IMG/VR virus record: IMGVR_UViG_3300027719_000011
Strand: one strand, 5' to 3'
From: a virus
DNA: 41,741 bases
Shown here: piece by piece, positions 2,185 to 41,741 of the stretch
How the letters are laid out: each line of letters starts with the position of its first letter
How positions within the stretch are numbered: the stretch's first letter is position 1
Notes under the pieces: model-generated
What the model saw: the letters and a program-made list of their open reading frames with translations, nothing else
Told to the model about the DNA's origin: nothing
Databases searched by the model: none
Translations under genes and position numbers: made by a program

Positions 2185-4155
2185 TTATGGAATAGTTCCG
2201 GTATCGTGGACGTTGTTGAATGGGGTCAAGGTTGAATCCGTCAGGTCGATGATCGCGGTCGTGTATGGGCCAGAAATATGATTGCCCTGAACGATGCCTT
2301 TCGATGTGCCTTGAGCATAAATGCCCATTGTCGCTTTGCCCGCTTCGTCGATAATGGTATTGCTATTGATTGCTAACTGGTACGAGCCAGATGCGATGCT
2401 GATACCCGCGCCAGCAGATGCCACCGATTCACTCTGATTTGGATTTATGATCGTATTGCCCGTAACGTTAAAGACAATGCCGCTCAAGCTTATGGAGTTC
2501 TTGTAGCTACCTTCAATCAGATTCCCAGAGATGCTGATGCCCTTTGAGCCGGTAATAAACGTGGTTCCCGCTATATCCGCCGCACCCACATTGCCTCGGA
2601 AATAGTTGTTGCTGATCACATATGCTCCGCCACGTGCAGCTACAATAGCCGCACTCGCATCAAGTCCGTTGAGAGCAAAAGTGTTGTTTTCAACCCGATA
2701 TGTATGCACGTTAGAAAAAGCCGTAAACAGACACTCTTTAACATTCCGCAAGAAGCTGTTTCCAGAAATGTTGATCTGACTGGTGACAGTAGCAACGCCT
2801 GCGATGTAGACCGATTCCTGAGTGCTTCCGCTGACACTGTTGTCTATAAAGTCAATGCTTTCCGCACGAACCAGCGCAGAGGTGAGCAATGCCCGCACGC
2901 AAGATTCAAACGTGTTATTTGACACGCTCAACCTTCGTGGATGGGACGCAATGCCGCTGCCCGGTGCGGTTACAAAAACCCCGCCTACAGGGACATTGAA
3001 GAAGTGATTATCAGACACGATAGCAGATCCGATCGGTTCATTAAAGGCTGTACCGGAAGTGGTAAATGTCACACTCCCGGCATTGTGAGTCTCGGTCGCA
3101 GTTGTCGGGCGGTAAATGTTGTTTTCAGTAAACACAATCCCGTCCCCGCCCGCAAATACGGCCGCCTGTCCGGTCAAGGTTTCAAACTTATTCCCACGCA
3201 CCACGATGTTGTCTGCGGCTAATGTCTTGTCAGTCGCGCCTCCTGAGCCGCCCGCACTGCTGATCGCGAAGTTGTGCCCGATGCCCACGGTCTCATTCGG
3301 CTGGGTCTTATGTTTGAATGAATTGTTCTCGATTGTTACATCTGCGCAGGCTGGGTACATTCGTACCGGATTCAGTGGGCCACCTGAATCAGTCCAGCGA
3401 TTGTTACGGATCAATGCTCCACGGGTGAACCAGAGCCACACTTCTGGCCCCTGGCCATCCCGAAACACATTGTTCTCGATAGTTACACCCCGATATGGGA
3501 AAGAATACGGGCTTGTCCAGTCGCCCTCAATAAAGCAAGTGATGAACTCATACCCTAACTTTGCGCCATTTCCGGCAGGGTTGCTGATTGTAAAGTCACA
3601 ATTCTTGATAGCCAATCCGCTGATTGTCTCAGAAGCAACCGTTGCATGCACGATTGCTGCGAGCTTGGTTTCTGTTACATCGGCGGCAGGATTCGGTGTG
3701 CCCGTCACATTGATATCCGCAATCACATTCTCAACTGTGACGTTGTTGCAATTCACGAACTCAAAAAGCCACATGCACTTCCCTGGAGTTGTCGCCGACC
3801 CCATGTCGAGGTCGCTGGTAAACTTTGCGCCGTCCATGCCTACGATTTTTACGTTGTCCACACCGGTTAGCTTGAAAGCACTCCACAAAACACGGGAACC
3901 CTCAGAGGTGGCTGCACCCGCTGGGACTACCCCATATGTTCCGCCGGGGATTACGAATGTCACATTGCCGCCAGCGGCTTGGATATAGGCTGCGGCAGAA
4001 GCAAGAGCCGGGGCATTATCGAAGCCTGCCGTTGCTCTCGCACCAAATGTTCGGAAGTCAACAACGGGTGTCCCCTGCAACTGCAACCAATGCGGTCTGG
4101 TTTGCGCGGATAAGCACGAAGAAAGTAGAAAAAAGGCGATTAAAAGCTTTTTCAT
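2185..4155 (-). CDS. Signal-peptide right-handed beta-helix protein, pectate-lyase or depolymerase-like
   Basis: I start it at the MKK codon (ATG 4153..4155), which has an AAGGAG 7 nt upstream; the ORF track start at 4179 would add 8 residues. The signal peptide MKKLLIAFFLLSSCLSAQT is followed directly by a Pectate_lyase_3-like start (FGARATAGFDNAPALASAAAYIQAAGGNVTFVIPGGTYGV) and many N/G/I-rich beta-helix coils. Confidence 0.65.
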   Translation of the reverse strand: MKKLLIAFFLLSSCLSAQTRPHWLQLQGTPVVDFRTFGARATAGFDNAPALASAAAYIQAAGGNVTFVIPGGTYGVVPAGAATSEGSRVLWSAFKLTGVDNVKIVGMDGAKFTSDLDMGSATTPGKCMWLFEFVNCNNVTVENVIADINVTGTPNPAADVTETKLAAIVHATVASETISGLAIKNCDFTISNPAGNGAKLGYEFITCFIEGDWTSPYSFPYRGVTIENNVFRDGQGPEVWLWFTRGALIRNNRWTDSGGPLNPVRMYPACADVTIENNSFKHKTQPNETVGIGHNFAISSAGGSGGATDKTLAADNIVVRGNKFETLTGQAAVFAGGDGIVFTENNIYRPTTATETHNAGSVTFTTSGTAFNEPIGSAIVSDNHFFNVPVGGVFVTAPGSGIASHPRRLSVSNNTFESCVRALLTSALVRAESIDFIDNSVSGSTQESVYIAGVATVTSQINISGNSFLRNVKECLFTAFSNVHTYRVENNTFALNGLDASAAIVAARGGAYVISNNYFRGNVGAADIAGTTFITGSKGISISGNLIEGSYKNSISLSGIVFNVTGNTIINPNQSESVASAGAGISIASGSYQLAINSNTIIDEAGKATMGIYAQGTSKGIVQGNHISGPYTTAIIDLTDSTLTPFNNVHDTGTIP

Positions 4156-4159
4156 GCGC

Positions 4160-5176
4160 CTACTCCTTATACCAAACAAGAGCTACGAAAGGCTTAGAAA
4201 GAATATTCTCGCTGTTGGTTGTATGGTTTTGCACTTGCACTGTTGTTGCGTCAAATAGCCACGAATATTCAAGGCCGACACCAGCGCCCATTGTAGTTGT
4301 AAACCCTGAGCCAAGAGCGGAGTTTGTGTCATAAAACACTTGGACTGACACACCGACAATTTTGGCTCCGGTCAATCCGTGGGCAACGCTGCCTGCCGAA
4401 CCTTCTGCTGCTGCTGTGGTTCCTTCTAACACTTTCATCTTAACAGGCGTAGAACCTTGTCCAATGCCAACATAGCCGTTAAGCTTCGTAAGGACAACAG
4501 AGTCAGAACCAAGGGTGACAGAGTTATCACCAGCACCAATGGCATCATAGCCTATAACAATTTCGTTGTCTGAACCATTTTCTAAAGCTCTAACGCCTCT
4601 GCCAATAAATACACTATGGTTCACTTCAGTCAGATACCCAAGAGTTTGATATGTTCCTGCGTTTCTACCTATCATAACATTGTTAGAGCTTGCACCACCG
4701 GTCTGGAGTGCCTGAAGTCCTATACCAATATTGTATTCGCCTGTTGAACCCTCCCCGGCTTCATGCCCAAGGAATACATTGTATCCACTTGTGGTTATAG
4801 CCTTGCCTGCTCCTGAGCCAGCCGCGAGGTTGCCAATCCCTGTGGTTACATTCTGTAAGGCATGGTATCCAAGGGCAAGATTATAACCACCTGTTGTAAT
4901 CTTCCACATTGGCGCATTTTCACCACTCGGCATCTCTGGCATACCAAAGCCCATGTTGTGCACCCCGGTAACGGTGGAGTTACCGCAACCGCCGGCAAAC
5001 ATATTGGTTCCTGTAGCCGTCAGCGCATCAAACCCATTGAGCTGGTATTTAAGCGAGTCTACCGAGGTGAAGGATGGAGTTGCACTGATTTCGGGCGGAG
5101 GAATCGTAGGGCCGCCTGCAAACGCGATGACGACTGAGGTCAGAAGCAGAAAAATGAGTGTGAATTTTTGTTTCAT
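4160..5176 (-). CDS. Signal-peptide protein with YadA-head or fibre-like N.A.G repeats
   Basis: The signal peptide is MKQKFTLIFLLLTSVVIAFA. It carries repeats such as GYNLALGYHALQ, GNLAAGSGAG, YNVFLGHEAG, YNIGIGLQALQ and DNSVTLGSDS. Confidence 0.55.
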   Translation of the reverse strand: MKQKFTLIFLLLTSVVIAFAGGPTIPPPEISATPSFTSVDSLKYQLNGFDALTATGTNMFAGGCGNSTVTGVHNMGFGMPEMPSGENAPMWKITTGGYNLALGYHALQNVTTGIGNLAAGSGAGKAITTSGYNVFLGHEAGEGSTGEYNIGIGLQALQTGGASSNNVMIGRNAGTYQTLGYLTEVNHSVFIGRGVRALENGSDNEIVIGYDAIGAGDNSVTLGSDSVVLTKLNGYVGIGQGSTPVKMKVLEGTTAAAEGSAGSVAHGLTGAKIVGVSVQVFYDTNSALGSGFTTTMGAGVGLEYSWLFDATTVQVQNHTTNSENILSKPFVALVWYKE

Positions 5177-23338: not shown

Positions 23339-23347
23339 TGCTATAAT
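23339..23347 (+). promoter_or_regulatory. Extended -10 promoter element TGCTATAAT
   Basis: It is read directly from the sequence and lies 20 nt upstream of the ATG at 23367. I see no good -35. Confidence 0.35.
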
Positions 23348-23366
23348 GCACAGAAGGACAATCAAC

Positions 23367-24182
23367 ATGAACCCGATGGATGCAATCAATAATATTATCG
23401 GCAACGCTACCACCAACCCGACTGCCCCCGCAGCCTCTATTCGCTGGCTTGTGTGTGACAAGTGTAAAGACATTGTAGAGCACGACATGTCTCGCCTCCC
23501 CCCCGCCACATGCACTGCTTGCGAAGAAACCACATCTTTCAAGGTGATGCCGTCTCTGGAAGCTGCCCGCCGATTGGCCGAAGCTGCCCCAGTCGCTCCA
23601 GTCGCTCCAGTCGCTCCAGTCGCTGAACCGGCCAAACGCCAGCGCAAAACTGCCCCAGCACCTGTAGTCGTTGCACCCCCAGTGGTCGAAGCAACTACCG
23701 CAACTGCCACCGAAGCTACCGAACCCGAAGTGCTGTTGAATGAGCAGGGACAGGTAGACTTTAAGGCTATGCGTGAAGCAGCAACAAATCATTTGATCCA
23801 AAAGTTCCACCTTAACGAAGTGGACATCAAGGAAGTCGGCCAGGGCACAATCTTTTCACTGGGCTTCACCCGATGGGTCATCAATGAGAATGGCAATCGG
23901 GCACCGAGCTACAACTTCATGGAGCTGACAGACACCCCGGCATCTTTCAAGGAAGAACTCAATGCCGCCCGCAGTGAAGAAGGTATGATCACTGTCGATG
24001 TTGCCAAGATCGTTGGCCTCAATGCCGAAGGGGCCGCCACATGCTACAATGGTGAACTGATCGCCAGCTTGAAGAATCAGACCGGCCCCGTCCGTGCAGG
24101 ACTCGGCAGCCGCATTCGACTCGGTGCCAAGCTCTCTAAGTCTGGGCGCATCGTGTGGTTTGCGTTGGGTGTAGCGAAGTGA
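23367..24182 (+). CDS. Zn-ribbon protein with a (PVA)n linker and an unknown C-terminal domain
   Basis: I prefer the start at 23367 (MNPMDAINN), which has an AAGGA RBS. It has CDKC...CTAC cysteine pairs and an APVAPVAPVAPVA linker. Confidence 0.5.
   Translation: MNPMDAINNIIGNATTNPTAPAASIRWLVCDKCKDIVEHDMSRLPPATCTACEETTSFKVMPSLEAARRLAEAAPVAPVAPVAPVAEPAKRQRKTAPAPVVVAPPVVEATTATATEATEPEVLLNEQGQVDFKAMREAATNHLIQKFHLNEVDIKEVGQGTIFSLGFTRWVINENGNRAPSYNFMELTDTPASFKEELNAARSEEGMITVDVAKIVGLNAEGAATCYNGELIASLKNQTGPVRAGLGSRIRLGAKLSKSGRIVWFALGVAK
23586..23624. repeat. 9-bp tandem repeat gctccagtc, about 4.3 copies, in frame
   Basis: It is read directly from the sequence. The first unit is gccccagtc. It encodes (PVA)n. 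Confidence 0.9.
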
Positions 24183-25065
24183 GGGCAAAACTAGAATCCT
24201 GGCAGCTACAGCAACGGCAGGCGCAACCTCTTGAAATCAAAGAGCAACTGACGGCCAACCGTATCAAAGCCTACTATGAGCGGCTTGACGGCGAAGTCTA
24301 CATCAGCTTTAGTGGGGCAAGGATTCTACGGTTTTGTTACACCAAGTTCGCAGGATGTATCCGCATGTGCCAGCGGTGTTTGTAGACACAGGTCTGGAAT
24401 ACCCTGAGATCCGAGAGTTCGTAAGAACAATTGATAACGTAATTTGGCTGAAGCCGAAGATACCTTTCCCCCGAGTCATCGAAGAACACGGCTACCCGGT
24501 GATAAGCAAAGAAGTGTCCCAGAAGATAAAAGAAATCCAGACAACCAAAAGCGAGATATTGAGAAATATTCGGTTGAATGGGGACTTAAAAGGTAATGGG
24601 AAAATTTCTGAAAAATGGAAGTTCCTGGTCGATGCGCCTTTTAAAATTTCTGATCGCTGTTGCCACATTATGAAGAAAGCTCCGGTGAAACAATATGAAA
24701 AGGAGACGGGTAAGGGGGCTATAGTCGGAACTATGGCAGCGGACTCAAATCTTAGAAGACAATCTTATTTACAATACGGGTGTAACTCCTTCGGAGATAG
24801 ACCTATGTCCACTCCTATGGCTATCTGGCTTGAGGAGGACATCTGGGCCTACATCAAGAAGTACAATCTTCCTTACTCTAAGATTTACGATATGGGTTAC
24901 ACTCGAACAGGCTGCATGTTCTGTATGTTTGGGGTTCATTTGGAGCCTGACAGCCGATTTGAACGCATGAAGATCACGCATCCTCAGATTTATAATTACT
25001 GTATGGACAAATTGGGATTGCGTGAAGTACTTCGCTACTGTGGCTTTGAACCCCCGAAAGAGTAA
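24179..25065 (+). pseudogene. PAPS-reductase-family (PP-loop ATPase) gene interrupted by a 1-nt frame change at the G4 run 24314..24317
   Basis: Frame A ends ...DGEVYISFSG and then goes out of frame. Frame B continues KDSTVLLHQVRRMYPHVPAVFVDTGLEYPEIREFV. Joined, they restore the canonical SFSGGKDSTV and DTG..YPE motifs. The C-terminus has TRTGCMFCMFG. Confidence 0.75.
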
Positions 25066-25156: not shown

Positions 25157-25906
25157 ATGGCTATTAAAGTACAAGCGACTAAGGCAACTGGAACCGAAGC
25201 GACTGAAGCAACTGGAACTGACCTGACCGCTGCCCCTGTGAACAATGCACTCGCAGCATTCAGTGCAATCAACCTCTTCAACGTCGAACCCCCGAAGCCC
25301 TCCAACAACTTGCTCCCACAGGTGAAGATCCCCTATCCAATCGAGATGAGCGATGTGTTCGGTGCTGATAAGCTCTACAAGGTTGGCCTGTTCGATGGCA
25401 GTGCATTCACGTTGGTGCAGGCTCCCTACATCATGACAGTTATTGGTATGCGTGAATGTGCCCGCAAACTGGTTACCCCTGACAGTGGCGAGAACAGCTA
25501 TGAGCGCAGCTACAAGTCTATGGGCACCGGCTTTGATGCCAGCGCTGCCGCCTATGAACAGCATCTGACCGACCCCGAAGCTCAGAAAGGCGTGTCGATG
25601 ATCGTCGGCATCATCGCAGCTGATGGTGCAGTAACTGTGGCCGAGTTGCCAGCGTTCAAAGTGCTGAAAGACTACTGGGTCAAACCCCTTCATCAGGCAA
25701 GAGCTGCCAATGGTTGCGGCCTCAGAGTCACCATCGCAGATCACAGTGTGAACCTTGTGCAGGCCAAGACCGGTACCAACAAGTATCTTGCACCCAACAA
25801 GTTCACCCAGCACAGCATCGTAGACCTCACCCCCGAACAGACCGGTTGCCTTGCAGCCGTTTTGGAAACCGCCAAGGACAAGTTTGAAGCCTGGGCGAAA
25901 CAGTAA
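25157..25906 (+). CDS. Hypothetical early protein (249 aa), possibly DNA-binding
   Basis: It has a good AGGAG RBS and its own downstream hairpin. I recognise no motif, so the function is a guess from context. Confidence 0.5.
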   Translation: MAIKVQATKATGTEATEATGTDLTAAPVNNALAAFSAINLFNVEPPKPSNNLLPQVKIPYPIEMSDVFGADKLYKVGLFDGSAFTLVQAPYIMTVIGMRECARKLVTPDSGENSYERSYKSMGTGFDASAAAYEQHLTDPEAQKGVSMIVGIIAADGAVTVAELPAFKVLKDYWVKPLHQARAANGCGLRVTIADHSVNLVQAKTGTNKYLAPNKFTQHSIVDLTPEQTGCLAAVLETAKDKFEAWAKQ

Positions 25907-25967: not shown

Positions 25968-26120
25968 ATGACAGGATTGGAAGCAAAGCTGGCCGAGGCT
26001 CTTCGGGTTCTCAGGCTACTGTATGAGTGGAACGTCAATGAAGTGGATCAGTTCGGGGGAGTGCTGCCCGACAATGAGATTATCGAAGCTGTGAAAGCTG
26101 TGCTGGGAGAGACAGAATGA
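25968..26120 (+). CDS. Hypothetical small protein (50 aa)
   Basis: I prefer the ATG at 25968, which has a GGAGG 5 nt upstream. The ORF-track start lies inside the hairpin. It is ATGA-coupled to the helicase gene. Confidence 0.4.
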   Translation: MTGLEAKLAEALRVLRLLYEWNVNEVDQFGGVLPDNEIIEAVKAVLGETE

Positions 26121-27643
26121 TACACGCTATTAAGGTCGGGAGCGGGTGGTGCCGATACAAAACGACTACCATCATCGCACCCGGCGACTACTACAAACTG
26201 GACGGGAAGCCGACCGACCTACTCAAACGCCAGCTGGCGTTGCAGGCGGTCAGTGACCCGAACGGTAGATTTCACTGGATCACTCCGGCAGCCGAATGGA
26301 TCCGCTTCGTGCTGCTGGGACAATTTGTCAAGGAAACAACCGCCTATGGACGAGACATCGACATTGCCCATCTCACCCGCACCTTTGGAGGATTCGACAT
26401 CACCAGACTCAGACCTTGGCAACTCAGAACCATCGCCGATGCCGTGTCATCGCTGGAGTCGGGTTTTCAATATCGCCGTGGATGTATCGTATCTCTCGGA
26501 GGAGGAAAAACTCTTGCGGGCTTACTACTTGGAACGCTTGGCGATAGATCGGCTGTCCTTGCCCCTCGACATACGCATGATACCTGGCGACGAGATGCCG
26601 ACAAGTGGCAGCTCCCCTGCCCCATCATCTCAACCTATGAGTCAGCCCACCGAATAGAACCGGTTGATGTGCTGATCCTCGATGAAATCCTGTTGGTTTG
26701 CAACCCCGACACCCTTCGTGCGGAAAAGGCGCGGCTACTCAGCAAAGATGCCAGCATCGTTGTCGGTCTGACCGGCACACCAACATCTGCCCGTGGCCCA
26801 CTCGATTGGCGTTGGTTGGATTGTGTGCGGCCAGGATGTGTGCCAACCAATGAGGTGCCGTGGCGCTTCCTGTTCTCGACCCAGACTGAAGTGAAGGAAG
26901 TCGCACCAGGGCGTAAAGCTTACGTGACCCCTGCTACAAGCTGGGACACCGAACGCATCGCCAGTTATGTAGGGTCATTCCTGATGAGAGTAGACACAAG
27001 TGAACTTTTGGCACATTTGCCACCAGCCACCTACACTCAGCTGTCAGTGCCCAAGCCAAAAGACTGGGACGTTGTGATGAAGGGTGCCGCCACTACACAT
27101 GGTGCCAGCAAGCGACTCACCCAGGCTCGGATGCTCAGTGACGGCTTTGTCCTCGACGACGATGGCAATGTCATTCGCCTCGACATGAACAAGATCAATG
27201 CTGTGGGTGAGTTTGTTGAAGGTCTTGGTGAGCCGGTCGTGATATTTGCTGCGTGGCGTGAAACAATCTCGGCACTGGTCAAGCGACTGCATGAATACAG
27301 TCCCGCTATCGTGAGCGGAGACACTGCCGACATTGGCTTCCAGATTCAGAGATTTCTGAACGAGGAAACTGATGTGCTGATCGTTAATTCAAGAGCCGGT
27401 TCGGGCATAGATGGGCTTCAGCAGCGGAGTCGCATCGAGATATTCGTGTCGAACTCGACCAGTCCAGTAGATCGTGTGCAGGCAGAAGGACGCATCTACC
27501 GGTCAGGTCAGAATCGTGGTTGTCAGATCGTCGATGTGGTGGCTGAAGATACCCTGGACGTTCGACAGCTGGAACTGCTGAAAGGTCACAACGACCTGTC
27601 AGCTTCGATGGTGGAGAAAATTCTATTGGAGGCATTGGTATGA
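26117..27643 (+). CDS. SNF2/DEAD-like superfamily 2 helicase
   Basis: The motifs are SLGGGKTLAG (I), VLILDEILLV (II), GLTGTPTS (III) and VQAEGRIYRSGQ (VI). Confidence 0.8.
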   Translation: MIHAIKVGSGWCRYKTTTIIAPGDYYKLDGKPTDLLKRQLALQAVSDPNGRFHWITPAAEWIRFVLLGQFVKETTAYGRDIDIAHLTRTFGGFDITRLRPWQLRTIADAVSSLESGFQYRRGCIVSLGGGKTLAGLLLGTLGDRSAVLAPRHTHDTWRRDADKWQLPCPIISTYESAHRIEPVDVLILDEILLVCNPDTLRAEKARLLSKDASIVVGLTGTPTSARGPLDWRWLDCVRPGCVPTNEVPWRFLFSTQTEVKEVAPGRKAYVTPATSWDTERIASYVGSFLMRVDTSELLAHLPPATYTQLSVPKPKDWDVVMKGAATTHGASKRLTQARMLSDGFVLDDDGNVIRLDMNKINAVGEFVEGLGEPVVIFAAWRETISALVKRLHEYSPAIVSGDTADIGFQIQRFLNEETDVLIVNSRAGSGIDGLQQRSRIEIFVSNSTSPVDRVQAEGRIYRSGQNRGCQIVDVVAEDTLDVRQLELLKGHNDLSASMVEKILLEALV

Positions 27644-27842: not shown

Positions 27843-28463
27843 ATGAGCAGTGTAGAAGATCGTCAGAAATATCACACAGAGTATAGGCGCAAGAATCGGG
27901 AGAGTCTGAGAGCAAAAAATAGGCTCATAAGAATAAAGAAAAAAGAAGCAGGATTTTGCCAAACTTGCGGTTGGGGGGTTCCAGTAGTCCCGGGCAAAAC
28001 TATGTGCGAGAAGCACTTAGAAGCTCGGAAAAGTCGCCGAGGGAAGAAGACCAAAACTTGGCAAAAAAATGGTATGTGTGCCCATTGTGGCCAGTTTCCA
28101 GCAGTAGAAGGTAAAAGATCCTGCGAACGTTGTTTGATATACGGGAGCCGAGGAGTAAGGGAACGAGGAGCGGCAGGTAAGCGCAAAATCGTGGCATATC
28201 TCGGAGGCAAGTGCCAGAGATGTGGGCTTGTTACGGATTGTATGCCCGTATACGAAATCCACCATCTAAGCAAAAAGAATAAAGACTTCAATATGAAAAC
28301 TATCCAAAGCTGGTCTTGGGAGACGATTTTAACCGAACTGAACAAAGGGGTTCAGCTTCTATGTGCGAACTGTCATAGGATTATCCAGCATAACCACGAA
28401 GAAAATTGGGCCAACAAGACTTTGCCGATAGGGCCAAGATCAAAAGATAGGGAGAACAAATGA
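27843..28463 (+). CDS. HNH endonuclease with N-terminal Cys-rich repeats
   Basis: The HNH core is GGKCQRCG...YEIHHL...LLCANCHR. The N-terminus has repeated CxxC pairs (CQTCG, CEKH, CAHCG, CERC). It has an AAGGAG RBS and an ATGA overlap with the polymerase gene. Confidence 0.85.
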   Translation: MSSVEDRQKYHTEYRRKNRESLRAKNRLIRIKKKEAGFCQTCGWGVPVVPGKTMCEKHLEARKSRRGKKTKTWQKNGMCAHCGQFPAVEGKRSCERCLIYGSRGVRERGAAGKRKIVAYLGGKCQRCGLVTDCMPVYEIHHLSKKNKDFNMKTIQSWSWETILTELNKGVQLLCANCHRIIQHNHEENWANKTLPIGPRSKDRENK

Positions 28464-30871: not shown

Positions 30872-31720
30872 ATGACAAAGATCACCCTGGTTCAACCCCA
30901 TCTCTCATTCTCAGCCGTCAACCAGTTCGCCACCTGCCCCCGTGCATGGTTCAGCCAGCGCGTGTTGGGCAAGAAGCAACCTGCAGGTGAAGCGGCCAAC
31001 TTCGGTCTAGCTTATGAAGCCCAGATCATCGAAGCCCTCAAAGCCACCAACGAGAAGGGTGCTGACGAGCGCGTCGACATCTCTGATCCGCAGGTAGCTC
31101 GACAGATCGAAGAGGCGAAACGAGTGTATCTCTCGTCACCGGGTGCCTGGTCTGCCGACATGCCCGGTAAGATCGTCGCACAGCGTGAGATCAAAATCAC
31201 CCCAGAACAATGGGGCACACTGGCCGACATGTATGATGCTCCCGGCGAGATCCACCTGCCGATGATCGGCTTCATCGATTTGCTGCACACCGATCCCACC
31301 GGACTCAGACGAACTGTGAACGACCTCAAGACCACCAAACAACCCGGTTGCAACACATCGTGGCTCCTGCAAACTGCACTCTACGCATTGGCAGAACGCG
31401 CACAACAGATCGAAATTCATGTGTTGCTGCGACCGCAGGAACGTGCAACGAAGAAGCCCCGCGCTGAAGACTGGTTGCCCAAGTTCCAGACCGCCATTTA
31501 CACGTACCGTCCCCATGACGGTACTTTCAAATGGGTGATGGGTTGGATCGGCTACCACGCGATGAAGATGCGCGAAGCTGAGAAGTCGAGCCTTGAGCGC
31601 CTGCCAGCATGTGCAAGCTATGCGTGCGCCTGGTGCCCAGAATCAACGACATGTGAGGCTGCTCTGGTGTCAGGTCTTACACCGACCGGCGGCACCAAGC
31701 TGAAGGAGGGTGACGAATGA
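30872..31720 (+). CDS. PD-(D/E)XK Cas4/RecB-like exonuclease
   Basis: It has an N-terminal Cys (FATCPRAWF), IGFIDLL, NDLKTTK, LLQTALYALA (QxxxY) and a C-terminal Cys cluster (CASYACAWCPESTTC). Confidence 0.8.
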   Translation: MTKITLVQPHLSFSAVNQFATCPRAWFSQRVLGKKQPAGEAANFGLAYEAQIIEALKATNEKGADERVDISDPQVARQIEEAKRVYLSSPGAWSADMPGKIVAQREIKITPEQWGTLADMYDAPGEIHLPMIGFIDLLHTDPTGLRRTVNDLKTTKQPGCNTSWLLQTALYALAERAQQIEIHVLLRPQERATKKPRAEDWLPKFQTAIYTYRPHDGTFKWVMGWIGYHAMKMREAEKSSLERLPACASYACAWCPESTTCEAALVSGLTPTGGTKLKEGDE

Positions 31721-32661
31721 TACTCGGTATTTGCGGCTATTCCAAAGTAGGTAAAAACACCGTATGCGAAGGTCTTCCAGACTACGAACAGCATGCCTTT
31801 GCAGATGTCCTGAAACAGCAGGTTACAACTATGTTGAAGGCTAATCACATTGAAGTGGATGTTTGGGGTAAAGATAAGGAAGCATGGAGAGATTTCTTGG
31901 TCTTTTGGGGCAGAAAGATGCGCTCCTTGGATATCCATTACTGGGTCAAGCACCTGTATGAGTTGATAGCTCCCCTAGGCGATAAACAGATCTGTATCAC
32001 AGATGTAAGATACCTTTCGGAAGTGCGTTGGATACAAGACAAGGGAGGAATAGTTGTCATGATTGATAGACCTGGATACGGGCCAGCCAATGAAGAGGAA
32101 GCCGCAAGCATTCGAGAAATCGAAGTCCAAATCCCGAAGCTGCCCCGTGTCATCAACGATGGCACCCCCAAGTTGCTGACCAAGCGGGTGATGGCTGCTG
32201 TGAAGCAAGCCGCCCTGACTCCTGAAATCCCGCTGGAACGCCTCAACAGATGGTTGGCCGAGCTGGGTGAGTTTGAAGAGATGCGCCCACCCGAAGCTGC
32301 AGTATTGTGGGGCATCACTCTGCGGGAAGCCAAAGAGCGTCTGCACATGATGATCGGTGACCTGCTTGTCATACCACCCAAACGGGTCGAAGTCTACGTG
32401 TATGGTGAAGGAGCAGATCCCATCTCAGCGAATCGTGCCGAAGACCCCACCAAGGTTCGGTACCATAGACTGTCCGTCATATCAGGTACCGGATCAACAA
32501 GCAAAGAGCTGGCCTGTACATGGAACTGGCCTTTGTACAGCACCAACAAGTATCTGGCGGTCTTGCTCAAAGAGAAAATGATAGAAGCCATTGGTAATGC
32601 CCGGTTCAAGATATGGGTACTGTCGAAGAAAGGCAAGGCTTGGTTAACCCGCAAGGTATAG
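31717..32661 (+). CDS. dNMP-kinase-like P-loop domain fused to a C-terminal winged-helix-like domain
   Basis: The P-loop is GICGYSKVGKNT, with ITDVRYLSEVRWIQDKGGIVVMIDRPG downstream, as in remembered phage deoxynucleoside-monophosphate kinases. The C-terminal roughly 150 aa ends in a wHTH-like segment (SKELACTWNWPLYSTNKYLAVLLKEKMIEAIGNARFKIWVLSKKG). Confidence 0.55.
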   Translation: MILGICGYSKVGKNTVCEGLPDYEQHAFADVLKQQVTTMLKANHIEVDVWGKDKEAWRDFLVFWGRKMRSLDIHYWVKHLYELIAPLGDKQICITDVRYLSEVRWIQDKGGIVVMIDRPGYGPANEEEAASIREIEVQIPKLPRVINDGTPKLLTKRVMAAVKQAALTPEIPLERLNRWLAELGEFEEMRPPEAAVLWGITLREAKERLHMMIGDLLVIPPKRVEVYVYGEGADPISANRAEDPTKVRYHRLSVISGTGSTSKELACTWNWPLYSTNKYLAVLLKEKMIEAIGNARFKIWVLSKKGKAWLTRKV

Positions 32662-40249: not shown

Positions 40250-41640
40250 TATTGTTCTCCCTCGATGTCAAGTTCCGCGCCTACAAAAGCAAATGGAGCC
40301 ACATCAGTCTGACAAAATTCAAACTGGCGGGTCTTTGCCCTGCCCAAACGGTGAAGCTCGACCACGTTGTTATACTCGCCCATCTTGTTGAGGGAAATGT
40401 AATGCTCATTCGACCAGCCTTTATTCTGATCGCGCCATCGCACCCAAAACTTCGGCTCGGTAATGTCAGTGACATACCCCCGCTTGGCTCGGATCTGCAA
40501 CTGCCGCATAAGCTTCCACACGTAAGTGCCGAAGCTCAAGTGAGATGTACGCAGACAGAATCGCGCATCTGTGGCCTCTCCGGTGATCGAGTAAACCTTA
40601 CCATCAAAGCCGATTGCCAGATAGCGGTTAAGCTCGGGAGAGAAAGTAACTGAGTGAATAGGCCACGGTTTGTAGGTGGCAACTGTCGAATCCCACTGGC
40701 CCCACTGATACCAAGCGTCCAGCACATAGTCGTAAACCAGACTGGTGCCGGTAGCAAATGAGGACAGCAGAATAAAATGCTGGTTGAGATACTGGAACGG
40801 GCTGCACACCAGGTCATCAACCGAAGCCAGTTCCCGCAGTATGCGGTTCACTGGCCCCGAAACGACTTTGGGTGAGCGGCCATCAAGCCGAATAAACTGC
40901 CGTTCATGATCAAGCCAGAACCAGGTGTTGTCGAGCTTCATCAGCGAATACGGTGCAGAACACCCTCGCTCAATGAACGCCCCTTCCATGCGTCTGAATG
41001 TCGCAGGAGTTTCGCCCGAGTTGTACCAGATTTCGGTGCTGTGGGTACCGAGCAATACCAGCTCACGCCAACCTGCACCGATAGACACGATCTTGTCGAT
41101 CGAAGCATCTGCGTCGGCATAGTTGGTGCCACTCCAGACTGTCGAGCCTGCGTCAGTCCACCAGAATCTACCTGTACCGACTTCGTTCGCAATGATGTGC
41201 GAGTCGAGCCAGGTCAGATGCGAAACAACTGTAGGCGCGGCAATGTCAGTCAAGAAGTTGGCGGTAGTGCCGTTGGAGGAAACTATCTTACCCCCGGCGG
41301 CGAGATAAACCAAGCTGGTGTCTTCGGTGAACCTGGCAGGTTGATTGGACGGGATTACATCGCCGGTTGTAGCGGTAACTGTACCGGTTGAGTCGATAGT
41401 ATAGATGCGCCCATTACCCACAGCAACGAACTTCTGGAGAGTTATCGACCAGAAGATCCCCTGCACAGGTAGATCTATCGCACTGGCAGACCCGAACTGA
41501 GTAGTGCCGGGTCGCTTGAAGTAGGTGCCTTGCTCATCCTGATAACCGTCGATGAACGAGGCAGGAAGTGCCCCATCTATGGTGGCTTCATCAAGGGCAG
41601 GCCACGAACCTTTGCCAAATTCTAATTTGATTTTGGGCAT
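40249..41640 (-). CDS. Tail hub / nozzle protein (P22 gp10 / T7 gp12-like beta-propeller)
   Basis: GAGWRELVLLGTHSTEIWYNSG, HFILLSSFATGTSLVYDYVLDAWYQW and the C-terminus FAFVGAELDIE parallel P22 gp10 segments as I remember them (TWRDFIVCFGSSTIEYFSLTG, ELLIIHLPRHVLVYD, LSGCQIRLE). Confidence 0.6.
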   Translation of the reverse strand: MPKIKLEFGKGSWPALDEATIDGALPASFIDGYQDEQGTYFKRPGTTQFGSASAIDLPVQGIFWSITLQKFVAVGNGRIYTIDSTGTVTATTGDVIPSNQPARFTEDTSLVYLAAGGKIVSSNGTTANFLTDIAAPTVVSHLTWLDSHIIANEVGTGRFWWTDAGSTVWSGTNYADADASIDKIVSIGAGWRELVLLGTHSTEIWYNSGETPATFRRMEGAFIERGCSAPYSLMKLDNTWFWLDHERQFIRLDGRSPKVVSGPVNRILRELASVDDLVCSPFQYLNQHFILLSSFATGTSLVYDYVLDAWYQWGQWDSTVATYKPWPIHSVTFSPELNRYLAIGFDGKVYSITGEATDARFCLRTSHLSFGTYVWKLMRQLQIRAKRGYVTDITEPKFWVRWRDQNKGWSNEHYISLNKMGEYNNVVELHRLGRAKTRQFEFCQTDVAPFAFVGAELDIEGEQ

Positions 41641-41741
41641 CAGAACACCTCAAACATCATTTCGGTACCGGCCAGAACAATGTTGGCCAATTCTGCGCCG
41701 AGTGTGATTGACGAACTTGAGGTTTCAGTATAACCTGTGGC
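41615..41741. repeat. Terminal direct repeat, copy 2 (identical to 1..127)
   Basis: Direct comparison shows identity. Bases 41640..41741 duplicate the 3' end of ORF 26..514. Confidence 0.95.

Follow-up and report, generated by a model that had tools for sequence, protein, structure and literature searches.

The analyzed window, i.e. the whole stretch of 41,741 nucleotides, is a complete 41.6-kb tailed-phage genome. Its ends carry a 127-base terminal direct repeat, which indicates a closed circle of 41,614 bp assembled by SPAdes at k=127 and thus implies Illumina data. The genes for the terminase, portal, major head protein, head-closure protein, primase, helicase, HNH endonuclease, family-A DNA polymerase, PD-(D/E)XK exonuclease, a dNMP-kinase-like protein, and a 936-aa protein are all uninterrupted. 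Hence, the assembly is not generally prone to indels, and no second broken gene is apparent among the genes checked in this genome. A megablast search of GenBank phages with the region returned no match, and the polymerase had only weak partial matches to Vibrio phages; thus, no close cultured relative is available for comparison.

The gene considered here lies on the plus strand and is divided between two overlapping reading frames. The N-terminal fragment (frame A, 24179..24385) has 68 codons, 46 of them native and 22 out of frame, with a GTG start at 24179 and a TAG stop at 24383-24385. Its product begins VRAKLESW, proceeds to EVYISFSG, and then continues as ARILRFCYTKFAGCIRMCQRCL. The GTG start overlaps the TGA stop of an upstream gene for a 278-aa protein (23346..24182, plus strand) in the form GTGA, which corresponds to a TAATG overlap in the orthologous locus L015; the two genes are apparently translationally coupled. 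The remainder of the enzyme is encoded in the -1 frame (frame B, 24313..25065, plus strand, TAA stop at 25063-25065), which reads (W)GKDSTVLLH, DTGLEYPE, RCCH, and TRTGCMFCMFG and contains a CC pair at 24658-24663 and a CxxC motif at 24913-24924. Because this frame is closed by a TAG at 24310..24312 (plus strand), it is open only from 24313, and a rescuing shift is confined to 24313-24383. Gene callers start frame B at TTG 24334 (243 aa) or at ATG 24355 (236 aa), and both starts fall 3' of the PP-loop.

The break itself is a run of four G's (24314..24317, plus strand) at the place where the PP-loop SGGKDS has its codons for Gly45 and Gly46 (GGN GGC); in the alignment with L015 it appears as a single gap column. 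The zero-frame context is AGC TTT AGT GGG GCA AGG. Neither frame holds an intact SGGKDS: frame A reads SFSG followed by ARIL, frame B reads (W)GKDS, and one base has to be added for the motif to appear. Insertion of one base at the G run yields a 295-aa protein of 34.6 kDa containing SFSGGKDSTVLLH, and the 295 restored codons have no additional stops or indels. Since a single family is matched by both halves along their whole length, the break is not a chance pairing of ORFs. The earlier note, which placed an interruption of the PP-loop at this GGGG and predicted a full-length protein of about 34 kDa from the PAPS-reductase family, is borne out on both points. Its claim that an extra G repairs the motif is true but too narrow, as any base serves equally well at the wobble position of Gly45. 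Enumeration of the possible insertions gives GG[N]GGC, with any N, as the sequence before the lesion. The loss of one base at the wobble of GGN-GGC always makes GGGG, so a prior G5 tract is not required, and the G4 run itself may be a product of the deletion. Runs of this length are common in the window, with 66 G4 and 103 C4 runs. Two other shifts at the site were considered and rejected: a +1 shift enters the third frame, which ends at 24407, and a +2 shift would remove one Gly from the PP-loop. Translated from each of three possible starts, the N-terminal stub was absent from the protein collection.

By descent, judging from its sequence, the gene is a member of PF01507, and the product encoded at present is predicted not to be a functional one. 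For PF01507 (PAPS_reduct), whose cut-off is 22.5 bits, the translation restored by one base scores 92.8, and the 243-aa fragment that the genome encodes (P0002) is also marked PF01507. The restored protein matches phrog_424 with E=1.4e-55, and it shares 90% identity, over 98% of its length, with an intact orthologue of 294 aa, P0001. Homologues number in the thousands; identity to the best 120 is 63-90%, and all of these are 271-325 aa long except the window's own 243-aa product. In an alignment of 35 sequences SGGKDST, the CC pair, and CxxC are invariant. The invariant cysteines, C160, C161, C245, and C248 in P0001, align with the CC and CxxC of the Pseudomonas APS reductase 2goy, where they are the [4Fe-4S] ligands. 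Thus, the protein has the CC...CxxC pattern of putative [4Fe-4S] ligands that marks the APS-reductase subtype. An AlphaFold2 model of P0001, which is the orthologue and not the window protein, has pLDDT 89 and pTM 0.86; the PDB entries that it matches best are 2goy, 6vpu, and 1sur (E from 3.5e-9 to 4.4e-8, target TM 0.63-0.68), so for this orthologue the model predicts the Rossmann-like alpha/beta/alpha fold of APS/PAPS reductases. Judged by its motifs, the enzyme is predicted to belong to the PAPS-reductase superfamily, as a stand-alone PP-loop protein.

The closest known group is the phage "phosphoadenosine phosphosulfate reductase" family (PHROG 424; PF01507), whose aligned members from Clostridioides phage Hain-Saunders-2022a, Clostridium phages phiCP34O and phiCP13O, and Enterobacter phage Tyrion are 40-49% identical to the restored protein over 94-98% of its length. 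The window gene lies in a replication/nucleotide-metabolism module, which is the typical setting of annotated PHROG 424 phage genes. It differs from them in being interrupted inside the PP-loop; in addition, the N-terminal extension of about 130 residues in the phrog_424 profile is missing here, and the match covers positions 132-367 of 460. With the sulfate-assimilation enzymes CysH (2goy, 1sur, 6vpu) the protein is predicted to share the fold, the P0001 model matching 2goy with E=3.5e-9 and TM 0.63. The PP-loop is different: it is a canonical SGGKDS here, whereas 2goy has SFSGAED at the aligned position. Scores against the CysH and APS-reductase families of NCBIfam fall far below their cut-offs (74.6 vs. 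154 for NF002537, 56.6 vs. 165.1 for TIGR00434, 54.7 vs. 235.3 for TIGR02055, and 39.2 vs. 254.2 for TIGR02057), and the 35-sequence alignment contains no conserved C-terminal catalytic cysteine of the ECGLH type. The tail of the restored protein, ...LRYCGFEPPKE, does contain a cysteine, but it is not conserved (the consensus of the 35 sequences is ...VIxYxGxxx). By these tests, therefore, the protein is not a sulfate-assimilation enzyme.

Phage PAPS reductases have been treated as sulfur auxiliary metabolic genes (PMC8879888) and also as homologues of DndC and SspD that are candidates for DNA modification or for action against phosphorothioate defence (PMC12914056; PMC13551039). With DndC, SspD, and BrxP the restored protein has the canonical ATP-pyrophosphatase PP-loop in common, but similarity does not extend over their full length, as the matches span about 50-90 residues of much larger proteins. 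The PADLOC match to BrxP (E=1.2e-21) aligns residues 13-97 with positions 105-193 of 779 only, the match to SspD (E=9.4e-11) covers residues 42-89, and that to DndC has E=0.0026. An adjacent P-loop NTPase partner (DndD, SspC, or BrxC) has been stated to be required (PMC12914056). Pfam and PHROG searches of the flanks recognised no such partner of the DndD, SspC, or BrxC type beside the gene, and the nearest NTPase is the helicase at 26117-27643. Neither of the two flanking genes, the upstream one for the 278-aa protein and an intact downstream one for a 249-aa protein (25157..25906, plus strand), has a Pfam or PHROG match, and searches for exact copies of the two proteins returned nothing. Both are kept only in the nearest relative L015 and are missing beside homologues of 80% identity; as candidate functional partners they were rejected because a conserved operon is not supported by their presence in L015 alone.

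The relatives compared comprise 96 viral or metagenome loci and 80 genome loci with about 155 in-frame PP-loops. No break at the same site was found in the 78 PP-loops of the viral and metagenome loci or in the 77 of the genome loci, and the two-frame arrangement is lacking in 119 of the 120 best homologues, the exception being the window's own product. The closest relative, the ENA contig L015, has 84.7% nucleotide identity and the same gene order; its gene is intact, encodes 294 aa, and reads AGC GGC GGT AAG at the site. Comparison with L015 gives a dN/dS of 0.056 for the restored gene, 0.035 before the break and 0.061 after it, below the values for three neighboring genes (0.09-0.17; 0.089 for the downstream 249-aa gene). 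The gene was under strong purifying selection until recently. Low dN/dS on both sides, together with the lack of other stops or indels, means that the lesion is either very recent or not real.

We consider the probable explanation, with a likelihood of roughly 70%, to be an ordinary one-base deletion that recently made a null allele of an accessory gene dispensable under some conditions. The main rival is a sequencing or assembly artefact, in which the real genome has GGNGG, the gene is intact, and one base was dropped from the consensus; this we regard as unlikely. The gene is otherwise perfect and constrained on both sides of the break, as would be expected if it were intact, and among about 155 loci the break is unique to the window genome. 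It is also somewhat unexpected that a gene so constrained (omega 0.056) should be dead in a phage abundant enough for its genome to be closed. On the other side, the 127-base repeat indicates Illumina reads and SPAdes, and consensus indels in Illumina data are rare at a run of 4-5 bases. The cluster of the truncated product has three members, which come from contigs of 41,741 (JGI), 41,644 (Logan, SRR10466901), and 41,654 bases (JGI). Over the 20,732 bases compared, the Logan contig matches the window with 100% identity, and it shares the G4 run. Its length equals 41,614 + 30 bases, as expected for k=31, so that a second assembler arrives at an equal base count. The Logan and JGI contigs may come from one library, hence they would not be independent, and the complete identity of the two accessible assemblies fits an error shared by both. 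The third contig, of 41,654 bases, encodes the same truncated product, and the rest of the 41.6-kb genome has no apparent broken genes, which also speaks against an error. An exact-protein search with P0122, the product from this third contig, found no match. A quirk of the assembler is thus an unlikely cause, and the four G's are presumably supported by the reads.

A genuine G4 template could still yield the full-length enzyme if a programmed or tolerated -1 ribosomal frameshift, or polymerase slippage, occurred at U-GGG-G. The geometry would fit: SGGKDS in its canonical form results from a -1 shift exactly at GGG, the site directly follows the opening of the -1 frame at 24313, and 66 bases separate it from the zero-frame stop further downstream. 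In having two overlapping frames with the downstream one in -1, the locus resembles programmed -1 sites such as dnaX (A AAA AAG) and the phage tail chaperones (G/GT). The likeness ends there, as the slippery heptamer, the stimulatory structure, and the conservation of such sites are lacking here, and the window site falls within a catalytic motif instead of between two domains. The zero frame contains no X XXY YYZ heptamer, and the P-site Gly-tRNA would have to re-pair from GGG to UGG with a first-position mismatch. No Shine-Dalgarno-like stimulator is visible in the sequence upstream of the site. The 103 bases of RNA downstream (24318-24420) have a minimum free energy, for pseudoknot-free folds, of -28.9 against a mean of -25.0 for shuffled sequences; this fold is no better than those of the shuffles (z -1.15), 21 of 200 of which fold as well. 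Four G's are too short for transcriptional slippage, and the two-frame arrangement occurs in no relative, the 90%-identical orthologue included. Frameshifting is therefore extremely improbable as the explanation.

Variation of the run within the phage population is a further alternative. Known slipped-strand contingency tracts have 7-8 or more bases, and four G's are far shorter; the long mononucleotide tract, typically of 7 or more bases, that characterizes such loci is replaced here by one of 4 bases. Some relatives do carry G runs at the same place, as the earlier note had proposed to check: 19 of the 155 PP-loops (about 12%) have an in-frame G5 or G6 exactly here, all without a break, so that such a run is tolerated at this site. 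In a polymorphic population intact and broken alleles would coexist, the major one being assembled, and the result would be a de facto on/off state of an anti-defence-like enzyme. The recurrence of lesions at other sites in relatives, suggesting repeated loss when the gene is not needed, would agree with this, as would the host specificity of phage PAPS-domain genes and their cost on the wrong host (bioRxiv 10.1101/2021.05.05.442762). Against it stand the four-base run, well below the size of a contingency tract, the in-frame G5 and G6 runs in 19 of 155 related PP-loops with no associated breaks, and the scans of IMG/VR and JGI metagenome contigs, which found no variant contig. Neither the G4 pattern of the site nor its five-base version had any match in the contigs scanned, and the window's contig and its siblings evidently lie outside that set. 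We consider such a polymorphism quite improbable. Of the four options offered in the earlier note, then, an inactivating mutation is favored and a sequencing or assembly error is still live, whereas programmed frameshifting, which would call for a heptamer, a significant downstream structure, and a shift in at least some of the relatives examined, and a phase-variable tract, given a G run of 4 bases and unbroken G5/G6 runs at the site in relatives, are unsupported.

The phage carries the gene for a PP-loop enzyme (SGGKDS, CC...CxxC) in its replication/nucleotide-metabolism module, and under the favored reading of a recent null allele one nucleotide has been lost from the Gly-Gly pair of the PP-loop, converting GG[N]GGC to GGGGC. 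Normal decoding would then stop at an N-terminal stub of 68 residues; the most that could be made besides is a C-terminal fragment starting after the PP-loop. Both the stub and the fragment are probably unable to bind and cleave ATP, which would make the allele null and its product inactive. The loss would be recent and unprogrammed, and the gene affected would be an accessory one, needed by the phage under certain conditions only.

A possible reason for such conditional need comes from an analogy. In Vibrio phages, a PAPS-Dam fusion gene together with its neighbor confers resistance to the host Dnd system, and a swap of the PAPS-domain gene cost infectivity on the old host (bioRxiv 10.1101/2021.05.05.442762). 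Related phage PAPS-domain genes may thus counter, in a host-specific manner, the phosphorothioate (Dnd) defence of the host, and the present enzyme presumably has a role of this kind. The anti-Dnd gene of Vibrio phage, p0018 (Piel et al.), is likewise a phage-borne accessory gene with a PAPS-reductase domain, and its presence or absence decides which hosts can be infected, which provides the rationale for conditional dispensability. The differences are considerable: p0018 is a 479-aa PAPS-Dam fusion with a C-terminal Dam domain that acts with a neighboring gene, whereas the window gene encodes a stand-alone protein of 295 aa with Fe-S-type cysteines, and the two are only distantly related. A stronger version of the same idea holds that the G4 allele is both real and adaptive, a costly host-specific PP-loop/Fe-S enzyme of DNA modification or anti-phosphorothioate defence having been switched off in one case of a recurrent, site-independent loss of the gene across phages and prophages. 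This we consider improbable; were it so, low-level -1 slippage at U-GGG-G might leave some residual activity.

For annotation, the gene should be labeled as a frameshifted, probably non-functional PAPS-reductase-family gene, and it should be counted neither as an active auxiliary metabolic gene nor as a recoding site. No new mechanism is opened by the locus; the original observation was correct, and its explanation is mundane. As a secondary point, breaks of this very conserved accessory gene have turned up repeatedly in phages and prophages, including at least one cultured phage, and their positions differ. Recurrent loss fits the idea, derived from Vibrio phages, that genes with a PAPS domain serve to counter the defence of particular hosts and are discarded when unneeded.

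About 12 relatives have lesions or splits of the gene at other positions. Errors or decaying prophages may account for some of them; taken together, they suggest that the gene is lost fairly readily. Single stops are seen in three loci: L024 has a TAA at a Gln codon followed by an ATG, L061 has a TGA at a conserved Gly, and L088 has a TAA at a Lys codon. Stop-codon reassignment was considered for L024 and rejected, because its TAA stands in place of CAA (Gln). L085 has a frameshift near residue 102, and in five genome or MAG loci (L136, L158, L159, L160, and L165) the gene is split between two frames. In the cultured isolate Clostridium phage Maintenon, the gene is annotated as a pair of overlapping CDS, the split coming roughly after residue 199.

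Lesions of the PAPS-reductase-like gene are found in other metagenome homologues, at a different site each time. In the homologue at locus L024 (3001-3861), a TAA stop at 3061-3063 stands in place of a conserved Gln codon. An ATG follows immediately, so that the PP-loop is retained in an ORF of 277 aa. A conserved Gly codon is changed to TGA in L061 (624-1502), a Lys codon is changed to TAA in L088 (528-1088), and the L085 homologue (870-1717) has a frameshift at about residue 102. Homologues split between two frames, at varying positions, come from bacterial genomes and MAGs (L136, L158, L159, L160, and L165, with matches near 4001-4925); two of these sources, Dysosmobacter segnis BX15 and Ruminococcus sp. 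YE282, are isolates. These split homologues are probably prophage copies in decay.

Two further variants of the gene come from phages. In the cultured Clostridium phage Maintenon (L177, ON453900.1), the annotation divides it into two CDS (1495-2103 and 2100-2495), which are read in different frames and overlap by four bases, ATGA. The split falls after approximately residue 199, leaving the CC motif on one side and the CxxC motif on the other, and could reflect either a frameshift or true gene fission. The Vibrio phage homologues, represented by phage 511E55-1 (L178, OX241558.1, 1474-2634), have about 38% identity and consist of a single CDS of 386 aa. Because this single CDS aligns in two pieces, the comparison suggests an insertion of some 80-90 residues relative to the family of the window.

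Second copies of the gene take several forms. At 13 loci (L005-L008, L048, L050, L054, L055, L057, L069, L070, L076, and L087), the main gene is closely preceded by a further ORF bearing SFSGGKDS, located ~730-1020 bases upstream of the main match; the similarity of this ORF to the query is limited to about 60 residues. Loci L032 and L141 each contain a tandem pair of full-length paralogues. Two identical gene copies spaced 1,093 bases apart in L033 may be an artefact of a circular contig. In L022, a short C-terminal remnant of a second copy (SRLSTMKVTHPQIYN / KLGLREVIRYC, 1458-1536) extends across two frames about 380 bases downstream of the intact copy.

In the window, the broken gene is flanked by two plus-strand genes, 23346-24182 upstream and 25157-25906 downstream, neither of which has a Pfam or PHROG match; both are conserved only in L015, the nearest relative. 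The upstream gene encodes a repeat rich in Ala, Pro, and Val (APVAPVAPVAPVAEP...). In a comparison of four genes it evolves fastest, with 75.5% aa identity and a dN/dS of 0.137.

An HNH endonuclease gene, also on the plus strand (27843-28463; phrog_2255, 4.6e-21), is located between a helicase and a family-A DNA polymerase, whose start it overlaps by four bases. Another four-base overlap joins the PD-(D/E)XK exonuclease gene to the plus-strand gene directly after it (31717-32661), which encodes a dNMP-kinase-like protein of 314 aa. The N-terminal half of this protein matches phrog_139 (1.4e-20) and, under the cut-off, Pfam P-mevalo_kinase and DNMK, and no match was found for the last ~140 C-terminal residues.

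The window ends in an exact terminal direct repeat of 127 bases (1-127 = 41615-41741). Its phage genome, closed and circular (or circularly permuted), measures 41,614 bp and comes from an assembly with k=127. The size of the Logan sibling contig, assembled from SRR10466901, is 41,614 + 30 bases.
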